Origin: Candidatus Roizmanbacteria bacterium
Lineage (GTDB): Bacteria; Patescibacteriota; Microgenomatia; UBA1406; GWC2-37-13
Length of the DNA stretch: 49,373 nucleotides
Direction: 5' to 3'
Assembly (NCBI GenBank): GCA_037132015.1
Contig: JBAXPW010000001.1
Span: forward strand, 1 to 49,373
The position numbers were made by a program, and so were the translations under genes. Position 1 is the stretch's first letter. Every line of letters begins with the position of its first letter. Positions 5,426 through 41,213 of the stretch are shown here, one piece after another. Under the pieces are notes generated by a model, which worked only from the letters and a program-made list of their open reading frames with translations, had not been told where the DNA came from and ran no database searches.

Positions 5426-5524
5426 AATAAAAATGATCGAACTAATAATATCTTATCCCTCTACCATGAAATGGCTAGAGTTCATAAAAACTTACAAACA
5501 GTAAACGTATTGTAAGATTGTGTG

Positions 5525-24134: not shown

Positions 24135-24944
24135 GTGAATAAATTATTGCAAAAATTGTTTGTAAAATCGCTTTCGCGTATTGAAAAACGAATTCGAATT
24201 GTCATTAGTGCGTCATTACTTACGTTGATGATGTTTAGTTCTACTTTTGTTTTTTTTGATAATGGATGGTTTATTTTTATCCCACTATTTATAGTAGTTA
24301 CGTATATCTTGACTTTTTTTGCGGTATTGGAAGGAGTAAATAATATAGAATGGATCACACTTTTTATAGTACCTCTTTGTATTAGTATAGTATTTTATTG
24401 TCTATTTTTTCTATTTCCATCAAGATGGATAACTCGCATCCCATTTATTACGATGTACGGTCTTACTATTTATGCCACGTTACTTTGTTCAAACATATTT
24501 AATGTTGGAGTAGAGAAGAGTCTGCAATTATATCGAGCTGCATTTTCAGTAAATTATTTTATTCATGCATTCATATTGTTTTTAACTATAAATGTTCTTC
24601 TTTCTTTTAAATTTAATTTTATAATAAATGCAGTTTTAACTTATGGAATAATCTATACTATGGCGATTCAGTTGTTATGGACAGTAAAATTACGACCAAA
24701 TATAGAAAGAGTTACGCATTATTATGCAATTTTTATTGCATTGCTTGTAACGGAATTAATGGTGTTTCTTTCTTTTGTACCAATACAAACCTCAATATAT
24801 GCTCTTTTTATTGCAGCAATCTACTATAGTTTGGCTGGGCTCATTTTTAACTATTATGATCAACGATTATTTAAACAAACTATCCGTGAATATGTGTTTG
24901 TACTCATTTTTGTTTGCATAATTGTATTCTTAACATTGACCTAA
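24135..24944 (+). CDS. Hypothetical polytopic membrane protein
   Basis: 269-aa ORF with a GTG start and 7-8 hydrophobic segments. No recognisable family. Confidence 0.5.
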   Translation: MNKLLQKLFVKSLSRIEKRIRIVISASLLTLMMFSSTFVFFDNGWFIFIPLFIVVTYILTFFAVLEGVNNIEWITLFIVPLCISIVFYCLFFLFPSRWITRIPFITMYGLTIYATLLCSNIFNVGVEKSLQLYRAAFSVNYFIHAFILFLTINVLLSFKFNFIINAVLTYGIIYTMAIQLLWTVKLRPNIERVTHYYAIFIALLVTELMVFLSFVPIQTSIYALFIAAIYYSLAGLIFNYYDQRLFKQTIREYVFVLIFVCIIVFLTLT

Positions 24945-25136
24945 ATATTTTTTTAAGGCAGACGAAGGGGAATAGAGGAGTGGGGTATTTACGAACGTGA
25001 ATAATGTGTAATATTTTTTTAATATACGAACGTTAAATATCCTATAATACTGTAATTTAAGCTCAAATAGTGAATAATTAGCAACATAACATCATATCTG
25101 CTAACTCAGAACCCCTCTACTTGAGAGGGAGTATAA

Positions 25137-25145
25137 TGTGGATAA
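25137..25145 (-). promoter_or_regulatory. Perfect DnaA box (TGTGGATAA, reverse complement of TTATCCACA)
   Basis: 9 of 9 match to the consensus, read directly. Confidence 0.6.
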
Positions 25146-25254
25146 AGTTGCTAATTTAAGTTCAATTCTATTTAAATAGATTGACAGTACAATCTAATCA
25201 AACTATGTCAATTGATATAGTTTAATCTATCTGCAACCGTCATAGCACACAGAC

Positions 25255-25263
25255 TCTGGATAA
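25255..25263 (-). promoter_or_regulatory. DnaA-box-like 8/9 (TCTGGATAA)
   Basis: One mismatch to TGTGGATAA. Embedded in the hairpin CTCTGGA-TAAA-TCCAGAG (25254-25271). Confidence 0.4.
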
Positions 25264-25293
25264 ATCCAGAGCGACGAAAACTCGGAGACATTT

Positions 25294-25302
25294 TTATCCA
25301 AA
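25294..25302 (+). promoter_or_regulatory. DnaA-box-like 8/9 (TTATCCAAA)
   Basis: One mismatch to TTATCCACA. Confidence 0.4.
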
Positions 25303-25464
25303 ATCTCAATTTTTATAATATTTGGGAGAAGTGGTTTAACAGAAATAATTAATGTGTTTATTAGCCCGCATCACTTCTCTGGAAGTGTATATATAACAAG
25401 AATATCTCCAATATTTAAAAGATCATATTACCAGTATATTTTAGGTGGAGAAGCTAGATATATA

Positions 25465-25492
25465 ACGTCGTAAATTATATCTTTTACGACGT
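25465..25492. repeat. Perfect 10-8-10 palindrome ACGTCGTAAA-TTATATCT-TTTACGACGT, nested in an outer inverted repeat TAGGTG/CACCTA (25442-25447 / 25494-25499)
   Basis: Read directly; the arms are exact reverse complements. Confidence 0.9.
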
Positions 25493-25610
25493 ACACCTAG
25501 GTGAAGAGAGTGGTTGTGCTCAATTTAGTAATTATTCAATTTTGATAATTTTTATGATTTTGTTGGGAAATATTTGAACATATATTTGAATTTGTATACA
25601 AAATTTCTCC

Positions 25611-25684
25611 TATTCTCACAGTTGGTAGATAGTGGTGAGCTGTTGGTAAATAGATAAATTAGATCACATAAGACGTCGGTTAAT
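25611..25684. repeat. Unit 1 of a roughly 75-nt repeated module: TATTCTC, a G/T-rich heptad-phased interior, then TAAGACGTCGGTTAAT
   Basis: Shares the 7-nt start and the 16-nt end with unit 2. The interior reads AGTTGGT AGATAGT GGTGAGC TGTTGGT AAATAGA. Confidence 0.7.
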
Positions 25685-25715
25685 ATCTTGAACAAGCTAT
25701 TAGCTAGTAGTTGAC

Positions 25716-25777
25716 AGCTGGTTAGTTTATAGCTGTTTAGTTTATAGCTGTTTAGTTTATAGCTGTTTAGTTTATAG
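25716..25777. repeat. Tandem 15-bp repeat, about 4.1 copies (AGCTGGTTAGTTTAT, then AGCTGTTTAGTTTAT x3)
   Basis: Read directly; three identical copies plus one copy with a single mismatch. Confidence 0.95.
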
Positions 25778-25858
25778 ATTTTACGTTACAGGCAATAGTG
25801 AGTATGTGTCTTATATCATCTTTGAAACAATATGGTCTTAAATGGCGAATTACGACTA

Positions 25859-25933
25859 TATTCTCTGAACAAGTGCATAGTTGATAGTTGTTTAGTTTGT
25901 AGGTTATAATGATTGCGTAAGACGTCGGTTAAT
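25859..25933. repeat. Unit 2 of the roughly 75-nt module (TATTCTC ... TAGTTGA TAGTTGT TTAGTTT GTAGGTT ... TAAGACGTCGGTTAAT)
   Basis: The 16-mer at 25918-25933 is identical to 25669-25684. Unit length is 75 nt versus 74 nt for unit 1. Confidence 0.7.
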
Positions 25934-25993
25934 GTACTTATACTGTTTGTAGGTTGTAGATAGTAGTTAGTAGCTTAAAGAAGGGAAAATATC

Positions 25994-26071
25994 TAGTCTT
26001 TTATAATCATTGGTGATTCCCCTTTTGTATTGTCGCTCTTAAGAGTACGCCTGTATGAGACGTCGGTTAAT
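25994..26071. repeat. Unit 3 (more divergent), ending in AGACGTCGGTTAAT
   Basis: The 14-mer at 26058-26071 is identical to the cores of units 1 and 2. The start TAGTCTT resembles TATTCTC, and the interior differs. Confidence 0.5.
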
Positions 26072-26181
26072 GTTAATATTTTTGTAAAGTTTTTGGTTAT
26101 TATTTTGTAGTTGGTTGTTTATAATCTATGTTCTTGATGAATCTTATCTATCTTTATATATTATAACCCTCTCCCCTCTTT

Positions 26182-27279
26182 TTATACCTTTCTTCGCCAT
26201 TTGAGCCATGTTTCGTAGATGTAGGTAAAGTAGTATTTTGGATGAATGACATAATCTTGAGTGGGAACATAATCAACTCGATTACCACCAAATCCTGTCT
26301 TAAATAAAGTTAATCCAGCCCATGGATGTTTTGGGTTGTCATCTGGAGCAATGCCATAAAAGTTATAGTATCGACAGCCACGTTTTATAGCTTCTTTTAT
26401 TCCTTCCCAGTGAAGGAGGTAAGGAGCTGGAATTTTAGAATGAGTAGATGCACCTTGATGATAAAATGCGGTTGAATTTGTGAAAAGAAGAAGAGCACCT
26501 GCCAGTAAGGAGTTAGTTGTTTGTAGTGGGTAATTAGTAGTTATTTCAGATGAATTTGGAATATGGTTTGCTAGAAGGTAGAGGGAATTATTGGTTTCTT
26601 GAAATATTTCAAATTCGTCATTGATGTATTTTTTTGGATACGGAGAAAAATGTTCACGCTTTACTGTTTCTTCATAGATTGTCCAGAACTCTTCAAGTGC
26701 TTTTTGATCAGTGCGTTTTTCAATGATAACTTGTTCTTTTGATGCTTTACGTATACAGTATCGTGTAGTTTTACGCATATCATTTAATAATTCTTCTTCA
26801 GATTTTGGAGTATTTACAAATTTTTCTAAATCAAGTACCCAAAAGCGCTCAGAATGAATATAAATTGGAGCGCCAAAAAATCCAAGTTTATTAAAGAGCT
26901 CACGATATTCAGGTGAATCAGTAAGTGAAGGCGCGATGCGAATAAAGGTATATTTTTCTTTTTTTGCGAGATCTATTAAATAGGTATGTAGTGCTGTGAA
27001 AATATTCGTTATCTGAACTATGTCATTTGAACGAGTTATGGGACCATGAGGAATATATAAAAAGGAACCTCGTTTCACTCGCATTTTGATGATTAAGGCT
27101 ATGGCGTGAAGAGATTGATCAGTAGATGAGGTATCTTCATAAATTCCAATATGTGTAGTCTTGTGTCCTCGTCTATTTTCAAACTCTGCCCATTCCCACG
27201 AATGAAGAAAGGAGGGTGATCCAGCATTATTAAAAAAAGTGTCCCATGTAGATTTATTCGTAATCTCTTTAATATGCAT
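26182..27279 (-). CDS. FemAB-family peptidoglycan bridge-forming aminoacyltransferase (FemX-like)
   Basis: 365 aa. The N-terminus (WDTFFNNAGSPSFLHSWEWAEF) and overall length and pattern are typical of FemA/FemB/FemX. Confidence 0.8.
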   Translation of the reverse strand: MHIKEITNKSTWDTFFNNAGSPSFLHSWEWAEFENRRGHKTTHIGIYEDTSSTDQSLHAIALIIKMRVKRGSFLYIPHGPITRSNDIVQITNIFTALHTYLIDLAKKEKYTFIRIAPSLTDSPEYRELFNKLGFFGAPIYIHSERFWVLDLEKFVNTPKSEEELLNDMRKTTRYCIRKASKEQVIIEKRTDQKALEEFWTIYEETVKREHFSPYPKKYINDEFEIFQETNNSLYLLANHIPNSSEITTNYPLQTTNSLLAGALLLFTNSTAFYHQGASTHSKIPAPYLLHWEGIKEAIKRGCRYYNFYGIAPDDNPKHPWAGLTLFKTGFGGNRVDYVPTQDYVIHPKYYFTYIYETWLKWRRKV

Positions 27280-27301
27280 AGTATTTTTTTATTTATCACA
27301 A

Positions 27302-28561
27302 CTAGGTTTCATTACTCTGATCTAAGGTATTATATGCCCGCGATTTCTTTTTTTGATGAAATAATTTGATAATTCGTTCTGCTTCTTTTTTTGAAACGAG
27401 GGCAGGGAGATTTACAATTTTTTCACATATGTCTTCGGCGATTGGACAGTCTCCTAATGTGTATCCCACTTTAGCCATGTTTAGTCCTTTGGGACCTATT
27501 ACTTGATCATACCATTTGCCAAGATATATGTGTTTTTTTTGCGCTCGTTTCAATAACTTTATTCGATCATCTGTGATTATTGGATAGCGTATGAGAGCTG
27601 GATTATTTGATACCAAAAAATTATTATTAAAATAGTTTTGATATATGAGTACTGATTGGATACGTTTTTTTGTACTTAAATTAAATTTTTCTAATTGATG
27701 AAGTAATAAGATACTTAATACATTGGGATACTGCTTTGCAAAAGCATAATCAAAGTTTCCATTTTTTTCTTTCGATGAGATTTCTCGTGGAAGGATTCCT
27801 GTGTTATTGAGGAGAAGATGAAATAGTTTTCCTATAAATATATCATATGAACTTTTGATAAATACGGTGAGAGGTTTATACCATAAGATTTGCATGATCT
27901 GTAAATAGTTGGGATATGCGAGGATATTTTCTTGCTCTGTCAATAGTTTTGCAATCATCTCTGACGATGTAACGATAGCACCTCCAAACACAGATGAAAT
28001 GGCTTTTGATCTTCCATACGATAATAATTTTATAGAATTTCCAAAATTATTTTTGAGTTCTTCGGTATCAAATCCATGGGCGAGATCTTCTATGACCGTG
28101 ATGTTATGATCTTGAGCAAATTTTAATATATTTGTTCTATCAGGAGTAATACCAAATGTGTGTTGAAGGATAAGCACCTTTGCATTGGGCGTACATTTTT
28201 TCTTTAAATCGTTCATCGACATACTATATGAATTGGGATCGATATCAATAAATATTGGTGTATATCCGAGGGATCGAATAGGGAGAACAACTGCTTCACA
28301 GGTAAATCCTTGTATGAGTATTGCGCTTCCTTTGGGTATAGTAAGTGTTTGTAGAAGACAATAAAGAGCTCCTCTTCCTGATAAAAAAAGATTTACATAT
28401 AGTTCTTCATTTGAGTTGTCTGTTTCAAAAAAATGAGAAATTTCTTTACGAAGACGTTTTGTTTCTTTTCCTTTTAGCCATCGCCATGGCTGAAAAATTA
28501 GTTTGAAACTGAGCCATGCATCATCCCCTGATTCATTTGGTGCGAAATCGGTTGAAATCAT
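27302..28561 (-). CDS. DegT/DnrJ/EryC1/StrS-family PLP-dependent aminotransferase-like protein
   Basis: GFTCEAVVLPIRSLGYTPIFIDID, VIEDLAHGF, and the candidate PLP-lysine segment SYGRSKAIS followed by FGGAIV. Confidence 0.75.
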   Translation of the reverse strand: MISTDFAPNESGDDAWLSFKLIFQPWRWLKGKETKRLRKEISHFFETDNSNEELYVNLFLSGRGALYCLLQTLTIPKGSAILIQGFTCEAVVLPIRSLGYTPIFIDIDPNSYSMSMNDLKKKCTPNAKVLILQHTFGITPDRTNILKFAQDHNITVIEDLAHGFDTEELKNNFGNSIKLLSYGRSKAISSVFGGAIVTSSEMIAKLLTEQENILAYPNYLQIMQILWYKPLTVFIKSSYDIFIGKLFHLLLNNTGILPREISSKEKNGNFDYAFAKQYPNVLSILLLHQLEKFNLSTKKRIQSVLIYQNYFNNNFLVSNNPALIRYPIITDDRIKLLKRAQKKHIYLGKWYDQVIGPKGLNMAKVGYTLGDCPIAEDICEKIVNLPALVSKKEAERIIKLFHQKKKSRAYNTLDQSNET

Positions 28562-28583
28562 ATTCTATTGTACCAGATTGACC

Positions 28584-30008
28584 TCATTTTAGGATTCGTT
28601 TTTTTAATGAGGGGTGTATGCGACCTTCGATAAGTATAAGGGTATCAGAGTCTGAATTTTTGTTTACAAAATCAAATAGAAGTTGTTCGCTTGCGAAGAT
28701 TTGAGTGTTTGTTTCTGAAGAAAAATCAGTATCCGTAGTTAGAAGAGCGATTGATGTTGATTTGATTCTGGAAATAATTCGATTGTAAGTATCATTTTTT
28801 TCTTTTCCTAGTTCGGGAATACCTTTTGAAATAATATACTTTTTTTTGTGTGGAAATTGTTCCATTGTTTGTATAGCTGAAATAAATCCAGACTCGTTTG
28901 AATTATATGAATCATCAAGAATAGTTGTATTATTGATACCCGTTGATTGAGAAAGTTTACCTTTGATTTGATCAAGATAAGCGATTGCTTTTACTATTGT
29001 TTCAGTTTTGATTCCAAGCTCGAGTGCCAGTGTGATGCAAGGTAGGATGTTAGCAATGTTGTGAACACCAATGAGATGTGTTCTGATTTCAAATTGTTGA
29101 TTTTTTGTATGGATTGTTGCTGAAAGAATAGTATCTTTGATTAAAATGTTTGTTGCATATACATCTGCTTCTTGTGTAGTTGAAAAAGTAATTATGTGCG
29201 CTTTTGTGTCTTTGATGAGCATTTCATAATCGTGTATATCGCGGTTGAGAATGATTGTTCCATTTGAAGGAACGGCAAGAAGGAGTTCCTTTTTTGCATT
29301 GATAAGATTTTCCCGAGATCCAAAGAGATCAAGGTGTTGATTGCCAATTGATGTGATAATTGCATATGTAGGTGGTGTGATTTTACAACAGTTTGTTATC
29401 TCACCAATTTTGTATGCTCCCATTTCTGCTATAAAATATTCGGTGTCTTCATGGAGATGTTGTAATACATTGAGCGCAATACCTACGTCGGTGTTCATAT
29501 TTGCTTGAGTTTTTCCCGTGATAAATTGTCGTGAAAGAATTTGATATAAAAATTCTTTTGTCGAACTTTTTCCGTATGAGCCAGTGATGCCGATAAAAAT
29601 AGTTTTTGTTTCGTGAACTTTTGTAATTGCTTGTGCAATAATGGATTGTCTCTTTTGATGCGCAAGTATGTTTGTAACATATACGCATAAAGAGACTACA
29701 GCAAAAGCATAAATAGGAATAAAAGCTAAAAAGATAAATGAGAGCATTTGTGGTAAAAATGTTGCGATCAGATAAATGTCGACTGATGCTACGATTGCAA
29801 GTAAAAGTAGTATAGCGTTGCGTGGTTTTTTTGCAGGCATTTTAAGTGAAAAGGAATAGAGGATTTTCAAAAAGGAATGTTCGTTTATTGTCGACTTTAT
29901 TCGATCAAAGCGATACTCTTTTATTTGATAGAGATAGATAAATTCTGCAACCTTCCAAAGATATAAAAGAATACTTATACCTGTTAAGAAAGATCGTTCG
30001 TAGATCAT
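28584..30008 (-). CDS. MurF-like Mur ligase with an N-terminal three-TM membrane anchor
   Basis: P-loop IGITGSYGKSSTKEF and C-terminal DDSYNSN (compare MurF DDSYNANP). The first 110 aa or so contain three hydrophobic helices in place of the usual soluble N-domain. Confidence 0.8.
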   Translation of the reverse strand: MIYERSFLTGISILLYLWKVAEFIYLYQIKEYRFDRIKSTINEHSFLKILYSFSLKMPAKKPRNAILLLLAIVASVDIYLIATFLPQMLSFIFLAFIPIYAFAVVSLCVYVTNILAHQKRQSIIAQAITKVHETKTIFIGITGSYGKSSTKEFLYQILSRQFITGKTQANMNTDVGIALNVLQHLHEDTEYFIAEMGAYKIGEITNCCKITPPTYAIITSIGNQHLDLFGSRENLINAKKELLLAVPSNGTIILNRDIHDYEMLIKDTKAHIITFSTTQEADVYATNILIKDTILSATIHTKNQQFEIRTHLIGVHNIANILPCITLALELGIKTETIVKAIAYLDQIKGKLSQSTGINNTTILDDSYNSNESGFISAIQTMEQFPHKKKYIISKGIPELGKEKNDTYNRIISRIKSTSIALLTTDTDFSSETNTQIFASEQLLFDFVNKNSDSDTLILIEGRIHPSLKKRILK

Positions 30009-30784
30009 TTTATTTTGAAAAACTTTTGAATTTCTTCAACAACTAATTGTGGCATTTTAATTGGCAATCCATGACCAACTTGAGGAACAATTTTCAAAAA
30101 CGAGCCTTTGATATGTTCGTGAAGTTCATGTGCAAAACTTACGGGAGTATCAACATCTATTTCTCCCCATAGAATGAGTGTTGGAGTAGTGATTAAATCT
30201 ATCTGCGTTGTGAGATCATCAGTAACTATTTTTCTAAAATTACTTTCGAGGTGTGGAAATTTGTATAAATCAGAATGAGGATATAATAATCGGTATGCTA
30301 TTCTGCGGGAAAATTTACATACTTCCTGCAGTGGTTGTGATGGAAGTTTTGAGCATATATCCCCTCCCCTTTTTCGGACTGCTTTGCGTTTATACGACGC
30401 ATCACAAAGAACGAGTTTTGTGACAATTTCTGGATAATGTGATGCGATGTAGATTCCTAGACTGCCTCCAAATGAATGACCAATGTATGAGACGGTTGGC
30501 AAATCCAGTTGATGAATAAATGCAACCACACATTCGGCATATTCTTTGACTGACCAGTCAGGATCGGGGTTGTCGCTTTCTCCAAATCCGGGAAGATCTA
30601 GGGTATAACACCGATATTCAGATGATAAGATATCTGCAACAGGTTGTAGGCTTTTTTGGCTTCCACCCCATCCATGGACGAATAAAACAGGACTCCCCTC
30701 CCCCACTACTTCGTAGTGAATATTTTTATTTATCCCGCCGATAGCGGAGGGAAAATGCCCGTGATTTTGTATTGAGATGATCAT
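30005..30784 (-). CDS. Alpha/beta-fold hydrolase
   Basis: HGWGGS oxyanion region, nucleophile elbow GHSFGG, and a C-terminal His (VGHGLP). Its stop overlaps the MurF-like start by 4 nt (30005-30008). Confidence 0.85.
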   Translation of the reverse strand: MIISIQNHGHFPSAIGGINKNIHYEVVGEGSPVLFVHGWGGSQKSLQPVADILSSEYRCYTLDLPGFGESDNPDPDWSVKEYAECVVAFIHQLDLPTVSYIGHSFGGSLGIYIASHYPEIVTKLVLCDASYKRKAVRKRGGDICSKLPSQPLQEVCKFSRRIAYRLLYPHSDLYKFPHLESNFRKIVTDDLTTQIDLITTPTLILWGEIDVDTPVSFAHELHEHIKGSFLKIVPQVGHGLPIKMPQLVVEEIQKFFKIK

Positions 30785-30908
30785 ATAAATCTATGTAGTA
30801 TTGTATACTTTTTATGAGACTATTTGCAAATATATTTAACACTAGAAAAATATTCCCCCCTGCAGAATTTGAAGTAGGGCTTATTATATATCCTACTTAA
30901 AAATAAGA

Positions 30909-30914
30909 TATAAT
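30909..30914 (+). promoter_or_regulatory. TATAAT box 9 nt upstream of ATG 30924 (possible short-leader or leaderless promoter)
   Basis: Read directly. No Shine-Dalgarno-like purine run between the box and the ATG. Confidence 0.25.
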
Positions 30915-30923
30915 TCTCGATAT

Positions 30924-31496
30924 ATGGAGTTTGCATTGGAAAATATCAATCAGTCATTTAAGCGTATTTCATGTACGGATGAGGCAGTGCGTCGTGCAGA
31001 TTTTGAAAATTGTACATTTGAGAAATGTACATTTGTGTCGAGTAATTTTGAACATTGTCGATTTACAGATTGTGTTTTTACGGAATGTGTGATTAGCGCA
31101 AATAAACCTACTAATAGTTCATTTATACACATTCGATTTAAAGACTCAAAAGTAATGGGATTTGATTGGACAAAATCGCGTGTAGCTCATGAACTTTCTT
31201 TTGAAGAATGTGATATTACATACTCTAACTTTAGTTATCTTAAATTACATAAACTTATGTTGTTAAAATGTAATGCAAAAGAATGTGATTTTATTGGAAG
31301 TGATTTGACGGGAAGTATTTTTACCGATACGAATTTTGAAGGAAGTAAATTTTCTCAAACGAATTTGACTAAGGCTGATTTTAGAAAGGCATATAATTAT
31401 GGCATAGATACGCGATATAATACCTTAAAAAAAGCCCAATTTGCACTTCCAGAGGCGTCTTCTCTTTTATTAAGTCTTGATATTATTCTTGAATAA
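30924..31496 (+). CDS. Pentapeptide-repeat protein
   Basis: Tandem A(D/N)LxX-type pentapeptides throughout (ADFENCTFEKCTFVSSNFEHCRFTDCVFTEC..., GSDLTGSIFTDTNFEGSKFSQTNLTKADF). Confidence 0.85.
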   Translation: MEFALENINQSFKRISCTDEAVRRADFENCTFEKCTFVSSNFEHCRFTDCVFTECVISANKPTNSSFIHIRFKDSKVMGFDWTKSRVAHELSFEECDITYSNFSYLKLHKLMLLKCNAKECDFIGSDLTGSIFTDTNFEGSKFSQTNLTKADFRKAYNYGIDTRYNTLKKAQFALPEASSLLLSLDIILE

Positions 31497-31504
31497 CAAA
31501 ACCA

Positions 31505-34500
31505 TCAAAAGCGTACAGCTGAACCCTCATTCATCCCCATTTGAATTTGTTGAGGAGTGAGAGCATAGTTGTATATACGAACATCATCGATGAGACCTGC
31601 AAAATATCCTGTTCCTGCGCTGTCTCTCCCGATATTTAATCCTGTAGCAGATGAACTGGTAACGACATTCGTTCGCGCCACACTAGCTATTTTATTGCCG
31701 TTTATATATGTTTCTAATGTGGTTCCATTGTATATACACATTACGTGAGTCCAAGTGGAATTACTTAGCGCAACTGTAGAAGTTGCTCCTACTTGCCAAG
31801 TGGTAGAATATATCTCGCAGACCGGATATGCTGATGCATTTGTTGTAAGTCTAAATTCATTATTTTTATGTACAAGTGTTTTGGATGTTGCAGTTGCTGA
31901 AGGATTAAACCATCCTCCCCAGCTGACGTTTGAATAGGCAGTTGCATTACTAGTTATGAGAGCAATGTTACTTGTACTTATATAATCATCTGTTCCATCA
32001 AGGGCCGTAGCTCCGTTAAACTTTCCAGTTGTGCCCGCATTCCACGCTTCGGTAGCAGTGCCAGAGTTACAGGCACCCGATATTGTATATGATCCTGTTC
32101 CACCAATAGTAATAGTTCCATTATTTCCAAAACTTGATGAATCATGAGCTGTATTTCCTTGACATTCATCCATTTTCCAATATCCAATAGGTTGGCCACG
32201 ATTATAATCCCATGCAATTTGAGCGGGGGTACGAGCATAGTTAAACATACGTACCATATCTATTTTCCCCGTAAACCATGAATCAGGAGCTACTAAATCA
32301 CTGTATGATCCGATTGATGAATATCCATCAAGTGAAGTTAGTCCAGAGTATGTGCTTGTACTTACATTTTTCCCATTAAAATATATTGCATAGGTGCCAG
32401 AGTTCCATGTCATTCCAACGTAACTCCATGTATTTATGGGAATGACAATTCCAGAATCTATATTTGAATTATTTCCGAGACTAATACCTAAGTTTCCTGT
32501 AGTTGGCAATCGAGTTAGATAAATGCGATTAGTTTCTCGATTACCTTCAACTATCATTTCATTAGCAGTTGGTGATGAAACTGTTGGGTATACCCATGCA
32601 GATATGCTTCCTGATGTTGCTGATAATCCATTATTTGGATTGATGATGACATTTTGAGAGGATCCGTTAAATAAAAGTGCTGAGCCATATTTACCAGTGG
32701 TCCATGTGGGGCTATTTGATAAAGCGCCAGAGCGATTATTACCACTTGAATCTAATGCTGTGGTGCCTATTTTATCATCAAATTTCCATTCACCAATGGG
32801 AGGATTGCATGTTGTTGTATCCCCCGGGACACAGTATGAGCGATCGACACCGTTACTGGGAGTGGATCCATCAGAAGTTGTAGAAAGAGCACCAAGAACT
32901 ACTGTTTTGCCTTGATTATAATCTGCAAGGATGTCAGATTGAGATAGAGCGCCACGATATAGTCGCAAATTATCAAGATTTCCTAAAAATTCGTCAGTTC
33001 CATCTGTGGCATTTCTATCGCCTACATAAATAGTTCCAGTGTTCACAAGCGAGCCTGTTCCTGACAATGCAACCTTACTGTCTACTAGATTGCCATCGAT
33101 ATATAATTTGAGAGAATTTACTCCATTTTTTACACCGGCAAAATGATGCCATACGCCATCATCATATCGTGTGGGTGCATTGGTTCCAATCGAGTCTTGA
33201 GGAAATGTCCCCGTTCCTCCCGTTCCAAAAATTATTTTACCTGTGCTACTCATATACACTGTATATCCAGCGTTATTTGCTTGTTTATAATATATATATT
33301 CATCAGCACTAATGGAGCTTCTCTTAAACCAAGAAGATAGTGTAAAATCTTCGAATCCTACAAAGTCAAATGAACCACTATTATTCAAAAGTGTTGCACG
33401 TAAGTTATTTGCACCAGCATAGGCTCCTCCAAATTTACCTGATGAAGTCCAGCCCGTAGAATTGCTAAGAGTAAGATTGTTGAGTGAAGATACTTTATCA
33501 TGAATCACTGTTCCATACCCTTCATCAAAACTCCAATTAGCAACTGTTCCACCAAAAGGAGTTCCTACTATTGGATGATCAGCATTCATATCCTCAATAA
33601 TTTGTTTTGAGGTGCGGGTATAGTTATATATTTTAAAATCATCTATTATTCCATTCCATGAATATGTGCTTCCACCTCCAATATTAAAAATTTGAGTTGG
33701 GTGTGTGCCAGGTCCTCCTGTATATGTTGCGGAGCTTGTAATAAATATACCATCTTTATAAATAGAAGTTGTACTTCCATCATATACTCCAGCGATATGT
33801 GTCCATTGGTTTGAAGAAATAGTTGTGCAAGCTGAAGATGAATTGGTATTATTTGTAATCCAGAAGCATGTTGTTCCTGAATTTGGCATATCAAGATAAT
33901 AACCCCCACGATTAGTAGCAGATGTGAATCGCTCTTTATAAAATACACGAGGATTTGCCTCACCTCCAGTTAATTGTGGTTTAATCCATACAGAAAAACT
34001 AAAAGGCTGTTGTCCCTCAAAATCTAGTGATGCACTTGCGGGAGCAGTTACATATGCATTTATTCCACTAAAAGATATTGCGCTTCCATATTTTCCTGTG
34101 GTCCAAGTTGGGCTTCCAGTTGATGCTGTTGTTGAGTTGTTGTTAAGACTCGAATCATAGGCGATAGTTCCAACTTTTTCATCAAAATTCCAATATGCGA
34201 CAGGTTCGGGGGCATAATTGTATATTCTATCGACTTCGCTTGGGGCAAGTGCGCGATTATATAATCGTACTTCATCTATTTGACTTAAATTGGAAAGATA
34301 GAGTGAGTTAGCTCGACCTATTTCAAACGTTGATCCAGATATAGGGGCTGTACTGGTAACAACAACATGACTCCATGTATTTGTTGTAAGAGTTGTGTTT
34401 GATTCCCCATTGATATAGATTGTTGGAGAGGTGAATCCAGTTGCAGATAGATTGCCAGTAGTTGATGTGATATATGTTGTTCCATTAAGATTTATATAAT

Positions 34501-36481
34501 AATTTGTAGTATTTGTTGGATATACCCAGAAAGCAACTGATTGGACATTAGAAATAGTTGATGTAATATTAAAATATTTTGATGATCCATTCATGACTGG
34601 TGCTTTTCCGAATTTTCCTCCTGAAAAGGTTATGGTTCCATTATTTGTTAATGTTGCACTGTTACCAGAAGAATCAGAGACATTGCCAGAAGATTCATCA
34701 AGTTTCCAATACCCTATTTGTCCATTAGATAAAGTGTTTTGTTTTGCTCCTCCCATATTTGTTGTTACTCCTTCAATACTTTGTTTTGCAATGTAGTTCA
34801 TCTTTACTTGATTTGATGAGAGAGCATAGGGATATACTTTAACTTCATCAATGTAACCTGACCAAGCAAATAGAATTGGCGATTGATAAGAGATGTTGAG
34901 TGTAGATGAATTTAATGTATTAACGCTATAATCATAAATACATATGTCATTATTTCCAAGTGCACCATTATTATCAAGAATAAGATTGAGGCTGTTACCT
35001 GAAGCCCATCCAGTACGATTAATTATTTCTTGTATTATAGTGCTTAAATCAGGACTACTATACCGAGTATTGTTGACCCACGATGATGGTGTATAAAGAA
35101 TACTAGCACTAGTATATATCATATTCCTTGGAAGATTGGTTCCAGAAGGCAACGAGGCGTTATCAATTGCATTTCCCTTAAATATTAAGTCAGGAATACT
35201 ATTTCCAATGCCACATGATGTGTTACTAAGAATAGCACTGGTGATAGTTGTTCCTCGAGGAATAGTAACATTCGTAAAATTCCATACAGCTGTTTCTGTA
35301 CTTGTATTCCAATAACCAGCTGAAATATTAACTCCATCCCACGTACTCCACTGATTACCATCATTAGCTGTGTTACTAATGGTTTGACTAAAAGTGCTAA
35401 TGGGCATATTAGAACTAACAAAAAAAGAAGTAGAAGAACCATTCAGAGAACCTGAAGCAACTAATGATGCATCTTGTCCTATCAACTGTCCATCAATATA
35501 AAGTTGTATAGTCGTTGCAGTTTTAACAGCTGAAAGATGATGCCATATATTATCATTATAAGTCGTAGTTGAACATGCCTCATCATCAGGCCCCCACGTG
35601 TTGTCATCGTCAATGCCAAAACACACTACTCCTGAAGTTTTCATATATATGGCATAACCAGCTGTGCTATATCTTCCTATAATTTGTTGATTTTGAGAAG
35701 GAGCAGATAAAGGGTGTTTAAACCATAAAGAAATACTCATACTACCACTACTTGCATTCAACTCTGTATCATTACTATATGTTCTATTGATGTAGCTAGT
35801 AGATCCATTAAACAGATAGCAGTTACCACTCACACATTGATCAGAGCCGACACGAGTTGGACTTGAAGTACCAACCCCAAGTGATCCTGAGTTTTGATAA
35901 TTCGTAGAATCTTTGACTACAGTCGCATTATCCTGATCAAAAGACCAACTAAGGACCGGACCTTTACTTGTTTCCTCAGTTAAAAAAGTTGGTCCTGATG
36001 TTGGTGTAAACGTTGCGTTACTAAAATTAGATGTTTGGGAAGCGCTTGAAGCCTGAGAATTGCCATAATACATAAAAACACTTGTTGAAGCAGTGCCTCC
36101 GTTAATCTCAGGTATAAGAACATAAAAACTTGTAGAAGTAGTGTTGCATGCTCCACCAGCAGAATTATAAAAATACTGTAATGCTTTTCCATTTTGATCG
36201 GTAAAACGAACATCAGCGCATGTTGATAGCATTTTACCTGCGGATATAAGGACAGATGTATTTACGAGATATTGAATTTTTTGAAATGTTGTCCCAGTAT
36301 TCGTATTATTTACCAATATTTTTTGTCTGTATCGATAATCATCGTCATACCATGCAGAGCTTAGTACAGGTCTAAATAACCAATACCATATACTTGTAGA
36401 TACTATCAAAAACACAACAAATAACATAAATAAACGTCTCTTCATAGTTGAATTGTATGGGTAGAAGTAGTATTTAGACAT
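31505..36481 (-). CDS. Giant surface protein: N-terminal TM anchor, a DUF2341-like domain, and at least six LamG/concanavalin-A-like (Laminin_G_3) repeats
   Basis: DUF2341-like YRYRQKILVNN...DVRFTDQNGKALQYFY...VFMYYGN. There are six repeat-terminal motifs (IDEVKVYPYALS, IDEVRLYNRALAPSEV, IDDFKIYNYTRT, LDNLRLYRGALS, IDMVRMFNYARTP, IDDVRIYNYALTPQQI). Alternative starts are TTG 36508 (track) and ATG 36445, just before the TM helix. Confidence 0.85.
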   Translation of the reverse strand: MSKYYFYPYNSTMKRRLFMLFVVFLIVSTSIWYWLFRPVLSSAWYDDDYRYRQKILVNNTNTGTTFQKIQYLVNTSVLISAGKMLSTCADVRFTDQNGKALQYFYNSAGGACNTTSTSFYVLIPEINGGTASTSVFMYYGNSQASSASQTSNFSNATFTPTSGPTFLTEETSKGPVLSWSFDQDNATVVKDSTNYQNSGSLGVGTSSPTRVGSDQCVSGNCYLFNGSTSYINRTYSNDTELNASSGSMSISLWFKHPLSAPSQNQQIIGRYSTAGYAIYMKTSGVVCFGIDDDNTWGPDDEACSTTTYNDNIWHHLSAVKTATTIQLYIDGQLIGQDASLVASGSLNGSSTSFFVSSNMPISTFSQTISNTANDGNQWSTWDGVNISAGYWNTSTETAVWNFTNVTIPRGTTITSAILSNTSCGIGNSIPDLIFKGNAIDNASLPSGTNLPRNMIYTSASILYTPSSWVNNTRYSSPDLSTIIQEIINRTGWASGNSLNLILDNNGALGNNDICIYDYSVNTLNSSTLNISYQSPILFAWSGYIDEVKVYPYALSSNQVKMNYIAKQSIEGVTTNMGGAKQNTLSNGQIGYWKLDESSGNVSDSSGNSATLTNNGTITFSGGKFGKAPVMNGSSKYFNITSTISNVQSVAFWVYPTNTTNYYINLNGTTYITSTTGNLSATGFTSPTIYINGESNTTLTTNTWSHVVVTSTAPISGSTFEIGRANSLYLSNLSQIDEVRLYNRALAPSEVDRIYNYAPEPVAYWNFDEKVGTIAYDSSLNNNSTTASTGSPTWTTGKYGSAISFSGINAYVTAPASASLDFEGQQPFSFSVWIKPQLTGGEANPRVFYKERFTSATNRGGYYLDMPNSGTTCFWITNNTNSSSACTTISSNQWTHIAGVYDGSTTSIYKDGIFITSSATYTGGPGTHPTQIFNIGGGSTYSWNGIIDDFKIYNYTRTSKQIIEDMNADHPIVGTPFGGTVANWSFDEGYGTVIHDKVSSLNNLTLSNSTGWTSSGKFGGAYAGANNLRATLLNNSGSFDFVGFEDFTLSSWFKRSSISADEYIYYKQANNAGYTVYMSSTGKIIFGTGGTGTFPQDSIGTNAPTRYDDGVWHHFAGVKNGVNSLKLYIDGNLVDSKVALSGTGSLVNTGTIYVGDRNATDGTDEFLGNLDNLRLYRGALSQSDILADYNQGKTVVLGALSTTSDGSTPSNGVDRSYCVPGDTTTCNPPIGEWKFDDKIGTTALDSSGNNRSGALSNSPTWTTGKYGSALLFNGSSQNVIINPNNGLSATSGSISAWVYPTVSSPTANEMIVEGNRETNRIYLTRLPTTGNLGISLGNNSNIDSGIVIPINTWSYVGMTWNSGTYAIYFNGKNVSTSTYSGLTSLDGYSSIGSYSDLVAPDSWFTGKIDMVRMFNYARTPAQIAWDYNRGQPIGYWKMDECQGNTAHDSSSFGNNGTITIGGTGSYTISGACNSGTATEAWNAGTTGKFNGATALDGTDDYISTSNIALITSNATAYSNVSWGGWFNPSATATSKTLVHKNNEFRLTTNASAYPVCEIYSTTWQVGATSTVALSNSTWTHVMCIYNGTTLETYINGNKIASVARTNVVTSSSATGLNIGRDSAGTGYFAGLIDDVRIYNYALTPQQIQMGMNEGSAVRF

Positions 36482-36552
36482 TATGGCAGGCTCGTATACA
36501 AAAAACAACTATGAAATACGCAACTAATACGGAAATTTTACAACGGTCAGTA

Positions 36553-36558
36553 TATAAT
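36553..36558 (+). promoter_or_regulatory. TATAAT box 5 nt upstream of ATG 36564 (leaderless-mRNA candidate)
   Basis: GTATATAATACTTCATG read directly; no SD-like sequence. Confidence 0.3.
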
Positions 36559-36563
36559 ACTTC

Positions 36564-37985
36564 ATGGACTTTTCCTCACTTGCTTTTGTGGATATAGAAA
36601 CAACAGGTACCAGTCATGAAAATGATCGAATCATCGAGATTGGCGTATTACGTGTACAAAATGGTGAAGTTATTGAGACATTTTCTTCACTTATCAATCC
36701 TCAAGTTGAGGTGCCTGATTTTATACAACGCATGACGGGAATTGATACAAATTTACTTCACAGCGCTCCTCTCTTCTCTGAAGTTGCTGATACGATTTTT
36801 CGACTTGTTGATACATCTGTATTTGTTGCTCATAATGTAGGGTTTGATTATAGCTTTCTTAAATCAGAATTTAGTCGACTTGATAGACAATTTCTTGCTC
36901 CTCGTTTATGTACGGTAAAGTTATCACGCACATTATATCCTCAATATCAAAAACACGGACTTGATACGTTAATGGAGCGATTTAATTTTATAGTTGAGCG
37001 ACGTCATCGTGCGATGGATGATGCGCATGCAGTGTGGCAATTTTATCAAATGATACAAAAACAATTTCCTTCGGAAGAGCTTCAAAAAACATTACATCAA
37101 TTGACTCGTCATTATCAAATACCAAAATCATTTAGTGCGGATGAAATTGATAGGCTCCCAACTGGTCCGGGCATATATATATTTTATGATATAAATCGTC
37201 ATCCTCTCTATATTGGAAAAAGTAATACTGTTCGTGAGCGAGTGCTTGCGCACTTTTCCGATACGTTAACATCTGATAAAGAAATGGATATGGCACAACA
37301 AGTACATTATGTAGAAGCAATCTCAACAATTGGAGAATTGGGAGCAGAACTTCTTGAGGTTGAAAAAATTAAACAACTGAAACCCATATATAACAAAAAA
37401 ATGCGAAAAAAATCAGTTCAATATGTCCTCATTTATTCTCCTGATGATGAAGGGTATTATCATGTGAGGTGTGAAGAAGTCGTATCAGCAATTCCATCTG
37501 AAATGTTGAACTCATTATTGGGAATCTATACATCAAAAGCTCAAGCAAAAAATTCACTTATCCGACTATGTGCTACATTTTCATTATGTCCACAATTTTT
37601 AGGATTAGAAAAAAGATCAGCATCTTGTTTTGCGCATAAATCAGGTAGATGTAATGGAGCATGTGTTGGAATAGAAAAACCGCAAGTATATAATCGGCGC
37701 ATGTTGACAGCATTTTCAAGAAGTAGAATAATGAGATGGCCATACCAAGGAATGATTGTCGTAAAAGAACAAAGCAGTGATAAAAATATTGCCTATATAT
37801 TTAAGGACTGGATATATTTAGGAACGATAGAGATGAAAGATCAGGCACAAGAGCTTAATTTATTTGAGAATACTGAATTTGATTACAATTTATATTCAAT
37901 ATTAAAAAACTTTTTGGTTTATAATAGACAGAAACATGCTATTTCAAACATCTCTGATAAAGAAATCTCTGAGATGACGAAATAA
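36564..37985 (+). CDS. DnaQ-like DEDDh 3'-5' exonuclease fused to a GIY-YIG (UvrC/Cho-like) nuclease domain
   Basis: Exo I (FVDIETTG), Exo II (VAHNVGFDYSFL) and Exo III (HRAMDDA), followed by the GIY-YIG motif GPGIYIFYD...LYIGKSNTVRERVLAHF. Confidence 0.85.
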   Translation: MDFSSLAFVDIETTGTSHENDRIIEIGVLRVQNGEVIETFSSLINPQVEVPDFIQRMTGIDTNLLHSAPLFSEVADTIFRLVDTSVFVAHNVGFDYSFLKSEFSRLDRQFLAPRLCTVKLSRTLYPQYQKHGLDTLMERFNFIVERRHRAMDDAHAVWQFYQMIQKQFPSEELQKTLHQLTRHYQIPKSFSADEIDRLPTGPGIYIFYDINRHPLYIGKSNTVRERVLAHFSDTLTSDKEMDMAQQVHYVEAISTIGELGAELLEVEKIKQLKPIYNKKMRKKSVQYVLIYSPDDEGYYHVRCEEVVSAIPSEMLNSLLGIYTSKAQAKNSLIRLCATFSLCPQFLGLEKRSASCFAHKSGRCNGACVGIEKPQVYNRRMLTAFSRSRIMRWPYQGMIVVKEQSSDKNIAYIFKDWIYLGTIEMKDQAQELNLFENTEFDYNLYSILKNFLVYNRQKHAISNISDKEISEMTK

Positions 37986-37986
37986 A

Positions 37987-38670
37987 TTATTTCAACTTAC
38001 TAAGAAGTTCATCATATGTGCGATATTCGAGCTTTTCCCCATTTAGGAATAATGTTGGAGTTGAACTAATACCATATTTTACACCTTCTGAAGCATCCAA
38101 ATTTACTCTATCTTTGACTTGTTGTGATAGTCTATCTGACTTAAATTTTTCAACATCAAGATTGAGATCTTTTGCATAGGTATCAAATAGTATTTCTGGG
38201 TTATCAGACTTAGCCCATATTTCTTGGTTCTTAAAGATTACATCGCTATATTCCCAAAATTTTCCTTGGATGCTTGCAGATTCAACTGCCCACGATGCTC
38301 GATCTGTATAGGGATGTGCACCACGGAGTGGAAAGTGTCGGTATACGAGAGTTATTTTTTTGGAGATTGCATTATTTGCACTCCCACTTGCTTCTACCTG
38401 ATTTTTGAAAAATTCATGAGTAGCTTTGCATGCTGGGCATTGAAAATCACTATATTCTATGAGAATATTCTTTTTTTCAGAAGACCATGCGACGTGATCA
38501 TCTGGTTTGATTTTTTTTAATGCTTCAATTATCTGAGTTGGTGATGTTTGGTTTGACGAAATATAGACAATGGTGAGAAATACGGACAACGCGATAAAAG
38601 AGATAACTCCGATAATAATATTGTTTTTTGTTAATTCCATAGGAGTATATATTACTCTGTTTGGCTCCAA
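37987..38670 (-). CDS. DsbA-family thiol:disulfide oxidoreductase, membrane-anchored
   Basis: N-terminal TM helix, a CPAC active site (FQCPACK), and STPTLFLNG (cis-Pro loop). Confidence 0.85.
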   Translation of the reverse strand: MEPNRVIYTPMELTKNNIIIGVISFIALSVFLTIVYISSNQTSPTQIIEALKKIKPDDHVAWSSEKKNILIEYSDFQCPACKATHEFFKNQVEASGSANNAISKKITLVYRHFPLRGAHPYTDRASWAVESASIQGKFWEYSDVIFKNQEIWAKSDNPEILFDTYAKDLNLDVEKFKSDRLSQQVKDRVNLDASEGVKYGISSTPTLFLNGEKLEYRTYDELLSKLK

Positions 38671-38726
38671 GTTTCAAGTTCATTAAGATTGTTTTGAAGC
38701 TTCTTGGTACAATATACTTATAACAT

Positions 38727-40070
38727 ATGGGATGTATAATAATATATTTAAGATCAATATTTAATAAACAGATTGGTATTCATCATAGCTTAAACGATTC
38801 ATATAAGACAATATCAATTCCAAAGAATGTATCTTTTTTTAGAAAACTACTCGCTTTTACTGGTCCGGGATATATGATAGCAGTTGGGTATATGGATCCG
38901 GGAAATTGGGCTACAGATTTAGCAGGTGGTTCTTCATTTGGATATAAACTTTTATTTATTGTGTTAATTTCTAATCTATTTGCGATTGTGCTTCAACATT
39001 TATCAGCAAAGTTGGGTATTGCAACGGGACGGGATCTTGCACAAATGTGCAAAGATAAATTTCCTCGATTTGTAAATGTGTTTTTGTGGTTTATGGCTGA
39101 AATTATGATTGTTGCATGTGATTTGGCAGAAGTGATTGGATCTGCGATAGCAATTAAATTGTTATTTGGCATCCCTCTTCTTATCGGTGTAGTGATTACT
39201 GGATTTGATGTGCTGGTATTATTATTGTTGCAACAAAAAGGATATCGATATCTTGAAGCTATTGTGATGGTTCTTATTGGTACAATCATTCTTTGTTTTG
39301 GCATAGAAATAATTATTGCACAACCACAACTTCTTCCATTACTTCAGGGATTTATTCCAACAAAAGAACTGTTTACAAATGCTGAAATGTTATATATTTC
39401 AGTAGGTATTTTGGGAGCAACAGTGATGCCACATAATTTATATCTTCATTCATCTATAGTTCAAACACGTAACTTTTCAGAATCAAAAAGTGGAATAAAG
39501 GAGGCAATATATTTTTCTACGATTGATTCAACGTTTGCATTATTATTAGCATTTTTTGTAAATGCCTCTATCTTAATTCTTTCGGCCTCTACATTTCATA
39601 CGAGAGGTTATGAACAGGTGGCAGAGATAGAACAAGCATACAAACTTCTCTCCCCTCTTCTGGGAGTTGTTGGTGCAAGTACATTATTTGCAGTTGCGTT
39701 GTTGGCCTCGGGTCAAACCTCTACTATCACGGCAACATTAGCGGGACAAATTATTATGGAAGGGTTCCTCAATCTTCGAATGAAACCATGGATGCGTCGG
39801 TTACTTACGAGGTCTCTTGCTGTCATTCCTGCCATTCTTGTTATTTTATTATATGGCGATTTGGGATTATCAAAATTACTAATCTCAAGTCAGGTTGTGT
39901 TAAGTTTGCAGTTGTCATTTGCGGTATTTCCTCTCGTGTATTTTACGAGCAATAAACATATTATGAAGGGATTTGAAAATAAAAAATGGTTACAATATAC
40001 TGCGTACATTATTGCAATTATTATCGTTTGTCTTAATATATGGTTAGTACAAAACATTTTTTCAGGTTGA
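38727..40070 (+). CDS. mntH: Nramp-family divalent metal (Mn2+/Fe2+) transporter
   Basis: Signature GPGYMIAVGYMDPGNWATDLAGG and MPHNLYLHS. Confidence 0.9.
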   Translation: MGCIIIYLRSIFNKQIGIHHSLNDSYKTISIPKNVSFFRKLLAFTGPGYMIAVGYMDPGNWATDLAGGSSFGYKLLFIVLISNLFAIVLQHLSAKLGIATGRDLAQMCKDKFPRFVNVFLWFMAEIMIVACDLAEVIGSAIAIKLLFGIPLLIGVVITGFDVLVLLLLQQKGYRYLEAIVMVLIGTIILCFGIEIIIAQPQLLPLLQGFIPTKELFTNAEMLYISVGILGATVMPHNLYLHSSIVQTRNFSESKSGIKEAIYFSTIDSTFALLLAFFVNASILILSASTFHTRGYEQVAEIEQAYKLLSPLLGVVGASTLFAVALLASGQTSTITATLAGQIIMEGFLNLRMKPWMRRLLTRSLAVIPAILVILLYGDLGLSKLLISSQVVLSLQLSFAVFPLVYFTSNKHIMKGFENKKWLQYTAYIIAIIIVCLNIWLVQNIFSG

Positions 40071-41167: not shown

Positions 41168-41213
41168 AAATTGGGATATCTGTTACTATTGTATTAAGTT
41201 TATTATTATCTTT

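Follow-up and report, generated by a model that had tools for sequence, protein, structure and literature searches.

A conserved 28-bp palindrome in a gene-free gap of a Candidatus Roizmanbacteria contig as a candidate dif site for a single Xer recombinase

We analysed a stretch of 49,373 nucleotides from Candidatus Roizmanbacteria (contig JBAXPW010000001.1, positions 1 to 49,373 of the forward strand; hereafter the window, with positions counted from its first letter), and concentrated on its largest intergenic gap. The gap extends from 24945 to 26181 (1,237 bp) and is bounded by the stop codons of a convergent gene pair, which encodes a DUF5656-family membrane protein on the left and a FemAB-family protein on the right; the next gaps of the window in size are 549, 453 and 428 bp. 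An earlier sequence-only reading had singled it out as an undescribed element, free of open reading frames (ORFs), highly structured and marking a switch in gene orientation. The coordinates of the gap and the orientation switch were both confirmed, and the longest ORF inside the gap has 47 aa (none reaches 60 aa); nearly all of the other features listed in that reading were likewise found where it had placed them, but several proved weaker than claimed. The gap contains a 28-bp palindrome at 25465-25492, which we consider probably to be a dif site served by a single recombinase, lying at the junction of the two replication arms and surrounded by motifs resembling FtsK-orienting polar sequences (KOPS).

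The palindrome, ACGTCGTAAA - TTATATCT - TTTACGACGT, consists of two perfect 10-bp inverted arms around an asymmetric, AT-rich centre of 8 bp. The nested 10-8-10 palindrome that had been noticed in the letters is real, and it can also be read as 11-6-11. It is unique in the window even when three mismatches are allowed. Using both arms with a gap of 6-10 nt between them as a search pattern, we found matches in at least 119 metagenome contigs, with a single match per contig, and one copy per locus was present in all loci examined. The complete Patescibacteria genome CP066689.1 has the palindrome near 904,135-904,162. In the seven lineages that were found via their proteins (the window itself and the homologous loci L005, L008, L011, L131, L132 and L134) the arms are identical, although the flanking proteins of these lineages share only 50-56% identity. 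The centre behaves differently: its length is 8 bp in 117 of the 126 listed matches, but its sequence varies, with TTGTATCT, TTATATCT, ATGGAGCT, ATGAAGCT and ATGAATCT among the variants. When these listed matches are read as 11-6-11, the common centres become TGTATC and TATATC; the dif centres of E. coli and B. subtilis are TGTATA and TATATA, respectively. Invariant arms together with a centre that is variable in sequence but fixed in length is the pattern expected of a protein dimer on DNA. The same pattern fits the core sites of tyrosine recombinases, in which protein binds to the arms and strands are exchanged in the centre. The geometry, too, is that of a dif-type site, with 28 bp in total, inverted arms of 10-11 bp and a centre of 6-8 bp, as compared with a range among dif sites of 28-31 bp and centres of 6-11 bp.

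The setting of the palindrome is conserved along with its sequence. The window has a G+C content of ~33%, and the closest matches of its proteins, at an identity of only 50-56%, come from Candidatus Roizmanbacteria and other Patescibacteria; a scan of a genome collection for close relatives of the window yielded none. Relatives keep the gene order TPR gene, yebC and DUF5656 gene, after which come 900-940 bp devoid of genes and, beyond these, genes that vary. On aligning these gene-free stretches we observed blocks of strong conservation, of which the palindrome is the strongest. Among 91 distinct listed copies with sufficient flanking sequence, most lie 390-880 bp downstream of an ORF on the same strand that has the size of the DUF5656 gene (~270 aa). 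On the 3' side of the palindrome come 160-800 bp free of ORFs, after which genes occur on either strand. The closest relative is L131, whose DUF5656 protein is 87% identical to that of the window. In comparison with L131, most 50-nt bins of 24945-25730 are 62-88% identical (64-85% for 25530-25680), as against 49% at the four-fold degenerate sites of the neighbouring gene. Absence of the region from related genomes had been named as a sign of decayed DNA; the region was found to be conserved, with blocks kept across at least 67 relatives.

In order to place the palindrome among known systems, we compared it with the sites of XerS/difSL (streptococci and lactococci) and XerH/difH (Helicobacter and Campylobacter), in which one recombinase acts on two inverted arms of ~10-11 bp, the same layout as is seen here. 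The arms of difSL are TTTCCGAAAA and TTTTCTTGAAA, those of difH are AGTTATGAAAA and AAAAGTTTGA, and the centres measure 6-11 bp (PMC5357621). Common to these sites and to the palindrome are arms that end in an A-run and a T-run around an AT-rich centre of 6-11 bp. Unlike them, the palindrome has perfectly symmetric arms, and its arm ACGTCGTAAA is unrelated to either TTTCCGAAAA or AGTTATGAAAA. It differs further in that the Xer gene is kilobases away in relatives of the window and absent from the window itself, and in that ~520 bp of flanking DNA carrying a DnaA box are conserved beside the site. The identity of the two arms speaks against a XerC/XerD pair and leads us to expect a single enzyme, as in the XerS, XerH, XerA and XerL systems.

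Using two recombinases seen in relatives as queries for tblastn against all loci, we found an Xer-like gene to the right of the palindrome at a distance of 2.8 kb in L118, 4.5 kb in L134, 6.7 kb in L086 and 13 kb in L008. The proteins encoded in these four loci are 75-80% identical between lineages, which suggests a housekeeping rather than a mobile gene. Two further loci, whose flanks fall outside the DUF5656 family, have the gene close to the site: in L021 a XerC/D-like homologue (48% identical) starts ~430 bp downstream of the palindrome, and in L088 a more distant, XerS-like homologue starts 90-190 bp downstream. NCBIfam puts all three proteins, that of the conserved locus and those of L021 and L088, in the Xer group: the best models were XerD/XerC, with 236-248 bits, and, for L088, XerS, with 190 bits. 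Every score lies under the curated cut-offs, indicating divergent Xer-like proteins. Adjacency of site and recombinase gene, seen here in L021 and in L088 (best match XerS), is a further likeness to difSL. The xerS gene immediately adjoins difSL, and such proximity may be a hallmark of single-recombinase Xer systems (PMC5357621).

We then screened all words of 6 to 8 nucleotides for a change in strand preference between the pooled left flanks (62 loci, ~350 kb) and right flanks (64 loci, ~320 kb) of the palindrome. The heptamer AGGGGAG occurs 60:0 (+:-) on the left and 3:36 on the right; for AGGGGA the counts are 151:15 and 20:65, and for AGAGAAGA they are 65:6 and 4:21. AGGGGAG is frequent, with ~1 copy per 6 kb of left flank (60 copies in 353 kb), and when it is counted up to the palindrome 91 of 92 copies lie on one strand. 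Binning by distance located the strand switch at the element. At the level of single loci, 53 favour the + strand and 2 the - strand on the left, while on the right 25 favour the - strand and 6 the + strand. The density of the motif in the left flank is 0.40 per kb in + strand genes and - strand genes alike, and it is thus a property of the replication arm and not of the coding strand.

The window itself repeats this pattern. AGGGGA is found 12:0 (+:-) from 404 to 24966, the copy at 24966 being the last on the + strand before the switch, and 1:8 from 26018 onwards. The - strand copies span 26018-41736 and the lone + strand exception on the right is at 46229, so that polarity switches between 24966 and 26018. 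Six of the - strand copies fall at 26-31 kb, where the + strand is G-rich, so the motif runs against the local composition. This part of the window (26182-30784) carries the FemAB, DegT, Mur-ligase and hydrolase genes on the - strand, and the skew of its G-rich + strand is +0.10 to +0.24. From both sides the motifs read 5' to 3' towards the palindrome. Gene orientation converges in the same way, 73% of gene bases being on the + strand to the left of the site and 63% on the - strand to the right of it.

A 28-bp site at the junction of the replication arms is likewise found in XerCD/dif with KOPS of E. coli, with the SpoIIIE recognition sequences (SRS) of B. subtilis and with the KOPS of L. lactis. 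In E. coli and in B. subtilis these motifs are octamers rich in G, and L. lactis has the A-rich heptamer GAAGAAG; they guide FtsK to the terminal junction (PMC3384302). The likeness lies in short, purine-rich, skewed motifs that point at the site from both sides, here AGGGGAG and AGAGAAGA. AGGGGAG is frequent and skewed, switches strand at the candidate dif site and does so independently of gene strand, which is the behaviour of a KOPS-type motif; recognition by FtsK is putative.

A number of observations weigh against reading the palindrome as a dif site. Both of its arms are unlike the canonical XerCD dif consensus (...ATAA-N6-TTATGTnAAnT) and identical to each other, and the lack of a match to that consensus sets it apart from XerCD/dif. 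The metagenome loci are a biased sample that is blind to variation in the arms, because the arm sequence was itself the search pattern. No Xer gene is encoded in the 49-kb window as judged by tblastn, and in the window's own family the gene is 2.8-13 kb from the site or was not found, adjacency being confined to L021 and L088. The polarity of the motif is uneven, being weak in some lineages (2:0 and 2:2 in L132, 7:3 in L011), and many of the pooled left-flank counts may be orthologous positions and hence non-independent. The ~520 bp between the DUF5656 gene and the palindrome are conserved in a fixed orientation relative to that gene, and 53 of 72 distinct homologous gaps have one perfect DnaA box in this orientation, features that a plain dif site does not require. 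Finally, GC skew shows no change of sign at the palindrome, in contrast to XerCD/dif. Positive values flank the palindrome on the left and on the right in 27 of 32 loci, as well as in the window and in the 20-kb locus L132 from a complete Roizmanbacteria genome, and the skew decays to about zero only beyond +6 kb.

A skew extremum had been proposed as a check on the locus. In the window the skew changes sign near 43-44 kb, ~18 kb to the right of the palindrome, so the expected extremum did not materialise and a plain terminus defined by skew at the gap was rejected. We noted a second compositional breakpoint at 43900-44600, where the skew becomes negative and several A/T-rich k-mers change strand: the ratio of TTTTTT to AAAAAA goes from 144:140 to 2:28, and AACAAA and TTTTGT switch likewise. 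No copy of the palindrome is present in the 428-bp gap at 43962-44389, and a pattern search for canonical dif across the window, the gap at 43.9-44.4 kb included, returned chance-level matches only and no rival site. Either the replication forks meet ~18 kb from dif, or the block from 44.4 to 49.3 kb was recently acquired.

The palindrome was also found in six IMG/VR viral contigs. Several of these copies sit in a non-coding gap of 0.7-1 kb between gene clusters, one of the contigs encodes a large terminase subunit, and two also carry the module motif of the flank (described below) or a purine-rich motif beside the palindrome. In the terminase-encoding phage (L139, on the same contig as L068) the palindrome, within 1400-1700, is flanked on both sides by the direct repeats GCAGTCGGAGGCGGAGAGTGCTAATA and GCAGTCGGAAGTGGAGAGTGCTAATA, and a TTTAGCCTCAAAAG motif lies upstream of it. 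The presence of such motifs beside the phage copy suggests that the accessory motifs of the host locus travel with the site. By analogy, the viral copies resemble mobile elements that carry a dif mimic and would integrate via the host Xer enzyme. A precedent comes from the Legionellales, where XerL acts on a lineage-specific, single-recombinase dif that had earlier gone unrecognised and is mimicked by a sequence on the mobile element LME-1; this element led to the discovery of the Legionella dif, which was shown to be close to the replication terminus and was tested genetically (PMC9765430). The six viral contigs are what our palindrome has in common with this system; it differs in being a prediction from sequence alone, and integration of the viral contigs at the site is putative.

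Viral copies would also be seen if the palindrome were only an attachment site (attB) for phages or islands that bring or borrow a tyrosine recombinase. Such an attB would agree with the differences in gene content to the right of the site between relatives, with the HTH_28/rve transposase-like pair that follows the gap in contigs having the L131-type DUF5656 protein, with the arm-like repeats to the right of the site in the window, and with a right-flank GC skew near zero, as for recently acquired DNA. However, it is Xer models (XerC/D or XerS) that give the nearby recombinases their highest scores, albeit under the curated cut-offs, and those near the conserved locus are 75-80% identical across L134, L008, L086 and L118. 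Moreover, no 20-kb locus has a second copy of the site that would mark the end of an island, and convergence of a polar motif and of gene orientation is not expected at an arbitrary attB. We therefore judge it decidedly unlikely that the palindrome is an attachment site and nothing else.

If the palindrome is a dif site, its action can be outlined from the known Xer systems. An odd number of crossovers after replication would join the sister chromosomes into a dimer. The FtsK translocase at the division septum would read the polar motifs and pump DNA until the two copies of dif meet; AGGGGAG and related purine-rich words are the likely motifs here, their role being predicted. An Xer-family tyrosine recombinase would bind both arms and cut at the edges of the AT-rich centre, and one added crossover would separate the chromosomes. 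Phages with a copy of the site would integrate via the host enzyme in the style of integrative mobile elements exploiting Xer (IMEX), and such integration is a possible source of the variable gene content and of the arm-like repeats to the right of the site.

The DnaA box raises a different possibility, namely that the locus is a replication origin or is controlled by DnaA in the manner of datA or the DnaA-reactivating sequences (DARS), with the repeated modules as iterons. The sequence-only reading had described a cluster of DnaA boxes. Three are indeed present, but only the one at 25137-25145 is perfect and only that one is conserved in relatives; those at 25255 and 25294 have one mismatch each. 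That this perfect box keeps one orientation in 53 of 72 gaps would suit an origin, as would the occurrence in relatives of up to four copies of a 45-bp module (TTTAGCCTCAAAAAT-N5-TTTAGATTGTTATAACAATCTAAAT), the AT-rich short repeats to the right of the palindrome, and related elements in large intergenic gaps of phage contigs, in two cases between divergent gene clusters. On the other hand, there is usually a single DnaA box, no dnaA or dnaN gene lies within +/-10 kb, and the modules are missing from 30 of the 72 gaps. In addition, GC skew is positive on the left, and the motif and gene orientation converge where an origin would have them diverge. We hold an origin or a DnaA-controlled locus of this kind to be very improbable indeed. 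The module motif occurs once in the window, and this single occurrence ruled it out as a general promoter. In L021, a TGTGGATAA DnaA box (205-225) lies ~180 bp from the palindrome on the side opposite the Xer gene. Since L021 is outside the DUF5656 family, the link between box and palindrome may be older than the DUF5656 synteny.

It had also been proposed that the gap encodes one or more non-coding RNAs. In its fullest form this would be a large RNA of ~0.5-0.8 kb on the + strand, running from the promoter-like block to just past the hairpin; the invariant hairpin would be an element of this RNA, and phages would have copies of their own, as is the case for other large bacterial RNAs. The arrangement of the locus lends this some plausibility: conserved blocks are separated by stretches of variable length across at least 67 relatives, the orientation relative to the upstream gene is fixed, the promoter-like site is conserved, and purines are enriched on the + strand, where G exceeds C in 71 of 72 gaps. 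The level of constraint (62-88% identity to L131 as against 49% at four-fold degenerate sites) and an insertion in L131 that lengthens a hairpin while keeping its complementarity point the same way, and the folding energy of the + strand is well under that of shuffled sequences (z = -4.2). The gap had been called highly structured, and in so far as it folds below shuffles this is correct, but it does so on both strands, with z = -5.65 on the - strand; the + strand is not favoured, and folding of this kind is that of DNA palindromes rather than of a strand-specific RNA.

Other tests of an RNA gave no support for one. A match in Rfam, to be expected of a known RNA, was found neither in the window nor in the gap nor in the homologous gaps of 18 relatives, the only two hits to Rfam 15 in the gap at E <= 10 (E = 1.7 and 2.2) being far below the gathering scores. 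ARAGORN detected no transfer-messenger RNA in the window, and terminator prediction gave none. Covariation, which had been suggested as a check, was lacking: RNAalifold on 84 sequences returned the invariant hairpin only, with zero compensatory pairs, and column-pair covariation and mutual information on the ungapped flanks gave no helix. A long-range helix between CACTTCTCT (~90 nt upstream) and AGAGAAGTG (18 nt downstream) looked compensatory in a few of the sequences, but a permutation test gave it no significance (z = 0.4-0.7), and it was rejected. Furthermore, an invariant stem around a loop of variable sequence and fixed length is the opposite of what RNA-protein recognition usually shows, what is conserved in the repeated modules is sequence and not pairing, a DnaA box is a signal of double-stranded DNA, and an RNA would leave the Xer adjacency and the polarity switch unaccounted for. 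Taken together, we consider a large RNA unlikely as the explanation of the locus. Among the cis-acting sites that had been listed beside RNAs (origin, terminus/dif, partition), the geometry of the palindrome, the linkage to Xer genes and the converging polarity favour terminus/dif, while the RNA and the origin were unsupported.

We also considered two further readings of the gap and rejected both. Among small ORFs, the sole shared 'peptides' are translations of the palindrome, and common variants of its centre put a TGA stop in that frame. An array of tandem interspaced guide RNAs (TIGR) did not fit the repeats, which recur either every 15 bp or at spacings of 138 and 249 bp, nor the neighbouring genes, which are DUF5656 and FemAB with no Tas gene. 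TIGR arrays have alternating repeats of 8-12 nt with 9-nt spacers in 36-nt units and adjoin a gene for a Nop-domain Tas protein (PMC12045711).

The conserved flank to the left of the palindrome is built of several elements (Table 1). A block AAGTAGAGGAGAGGGGAG, also given as GGGGAATAGAGGAGTGGGG, is conserved in relatives at the position of the innermost left polar block, and ACGgACGTGAATAATATATCCTATAGT, within the block that follows, is 80-99% conserved across 67 relatives. A 9-bp stem enclosing a CCCTCT/AGAGGG hairpin had been reported near the DnaA box; it is present in the window, but the 3' arm of the stem is lost in L131. The mutually exclusive helices that had been described nearer the palindrome do exist, formed by GAGAAGTG (25327-34), CACTTCTC (25371-78) and GAAGTG (25381-86). 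We know of no counterpart of this DnaA-box-bearing flank in well-studied dif loci, and we regard it as the likeliest place in the locus for something new. Its role may be accessory or regulatory, or it may be transcribed. It is possible, if doubtful, that the ~520 bp constitute a previously unknown functional unit linked to the terminus and partly shared with phages of these bacteria. Such a unit could be a control region coupling DnaA or another factor to Xer recombination or fork arrest; alternatively, it could be the gene of a large non-coding RNA, overlapping the recombination site at its 3' end.

Patescibacteria (Candidate Phyla Radiation) account for a large share of bacterial diversity and very few of them have been cultured, and their chromosome maintenance is known almost solely from gene lists. 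In a full-text literature search, no paper turned up that treats Patescibacteria together with dif or Xer, nor any that mentions DUF5656. Sites of the dif type, single-recombinase Xer modules, KOPS and mobile elements that exploit Xer are already established. What is most likely new here is a putative dif-type sequence for Patescibacteria, together with a candidate guide motif and a conserved flank. The description of the gap as an undescribed element holds in a narrow sense, since dif is a known kind of site, but for this phylum the literature searched did not contain the present sequence. If the dif reading is true, the palindrome, together with the candidate guide motif, would be a terminus marker that needs sequence only and could be used for checking and orienting assembled genomes and for spotting misassemblies. 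It would also make phages and islands that integrate via the host Xer enzyme recognisable, and would offer a simple substrate for tests of a Patescibacteria Xer recombinase, either in vitro or in E. coli.

Table 1. Features of the gene-free gap, its neighbouring genes and the RNA gene of the window
Feature	Position	Strand	Remarks
tRNA-Leu (CAA)	5524-5609	-	ARAGORN; no other RNA gene found in the window
DUF5656-family membrane protein gene	24135-24944	+	left neighbour of the gap
Innermost left G-rich polar block GAAGGGGAATAGAGGAGTGGGG	24962-24985	+	directly after the DUF5656 stop; AGGGGA at 24966
Conserved block	24987-25048	+	two copies of TACGAACGT(G/T)AA, 24987-25001 and 25022-25036
Promoter-like site TTAATA-18-TATAAT	25019-25048	+	counterpart TTCACT-18-TATAAT in L005
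Perfect DnaA box TTATCCACA (TGTGGATAA on the + strand)	25137-25145	-	kept in L131
Module motif, single copy, TAGATTGACAGTACAATCTAAT	25178-25200	+	nowhere else in the window
Purine-rich KOPS-like motif GGAGAAGTGG	25326-25335	+	with inverted copy CACTTCTCTGGAAGTG at 25371-25386
Candidate dif core ACGTCGTAAA - TTATATCT - TTTACGACGT	25465-25492	no strand	28-bp palindrome
Purine-rich motif GAAGAGAGTGG	25503-25513	+	conserved; ~18 nt 3' of the palindrome; consensus GAAGAGAAGTGG
AT-rich stretch including ATATTTGAACATATATTTGAATTTGTATAC	25521-25660	no strand	conserved within the genus
Lineage-specific insert	25671-26071	+	three direct AGACGTCGGTTAAT copies and a 15-bp tandem array
Innermost right G-rich motif AGAGGGGAGAGGGT (- strand)	26165-26178	-	directly after the FemAB stop codon
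FemAB-family gene	26182-27279	-	right neighbour of the gap

To the right of the palindrome, the AT-rich stretch contains two copies of the repeat ATATTTGAA (25570 and 25582), as had been noted from the letters. Beyond it, the right half of the gap (25600-26160) is specific to the genus. Its AGACGTCGGTTAAT units, at 25671, 25920 and 26058, are the sole matches in 49 kb, as against 0.24 expected, and resemble the left arm of the palindrome with part of the centre. They had been described as three units of roughly 75 nt; the repeats are present, but the stretch that they share is only 14-23 nt. The 15-bp tandem array was confirmed at 25708-25777, with 4.7 copies, and four of the five + strand ACGTCG hexamers of the window fall inside the gap. 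The first AGACGTCGGTTAAT unit is kept in L131 (1830-1877), whose sequence departs from that of the window after this unit, and in sister contigs with the L131-type DUF5656 protein (P0122) the gap is followed by a HTH_28 and rve transposase-like gene pair; the side to the right of the palindrome thus fits a tolerance of insertions. The AGACGTCGGTTAAT units may be degenerate half-sites or integration scars of elements. Extra half-sites were rejected as a general feature of the locus, the units being confined to this genus and lacking in other clades.

At the right end of the gap, AGGGGA/GGGGAG copies on the - strand lie at 26171-26172, within the G-rich motif at 26165-26178. Relatives have a cluster of TCCCCT copies at +97 to +237 relative to the palindrome, in several relatives within TTATTCCCTC-like runs, and their mirrored TTATTCCCTC-type block is situated 100-240 bp to the right of it. 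In the window this block has been displaced to 26165-26178 by the lineage-specific insert. A half copy of a hairpin element, AACCCTCTCC, had been reported at 26165-26174, and these 10 nt are indeed common to the hairpin elements at 45788 and 47049. The latter are nested and near-identical (45788-45830 and 47049-47092), have the form CACCCTAACCCTCTCC-N7-GGAGAGGGAAT..AGGGTGAGGTAA, lie just after two + strand genes, and look like repetitive extragenic palindromic (REP) elements or terminators.

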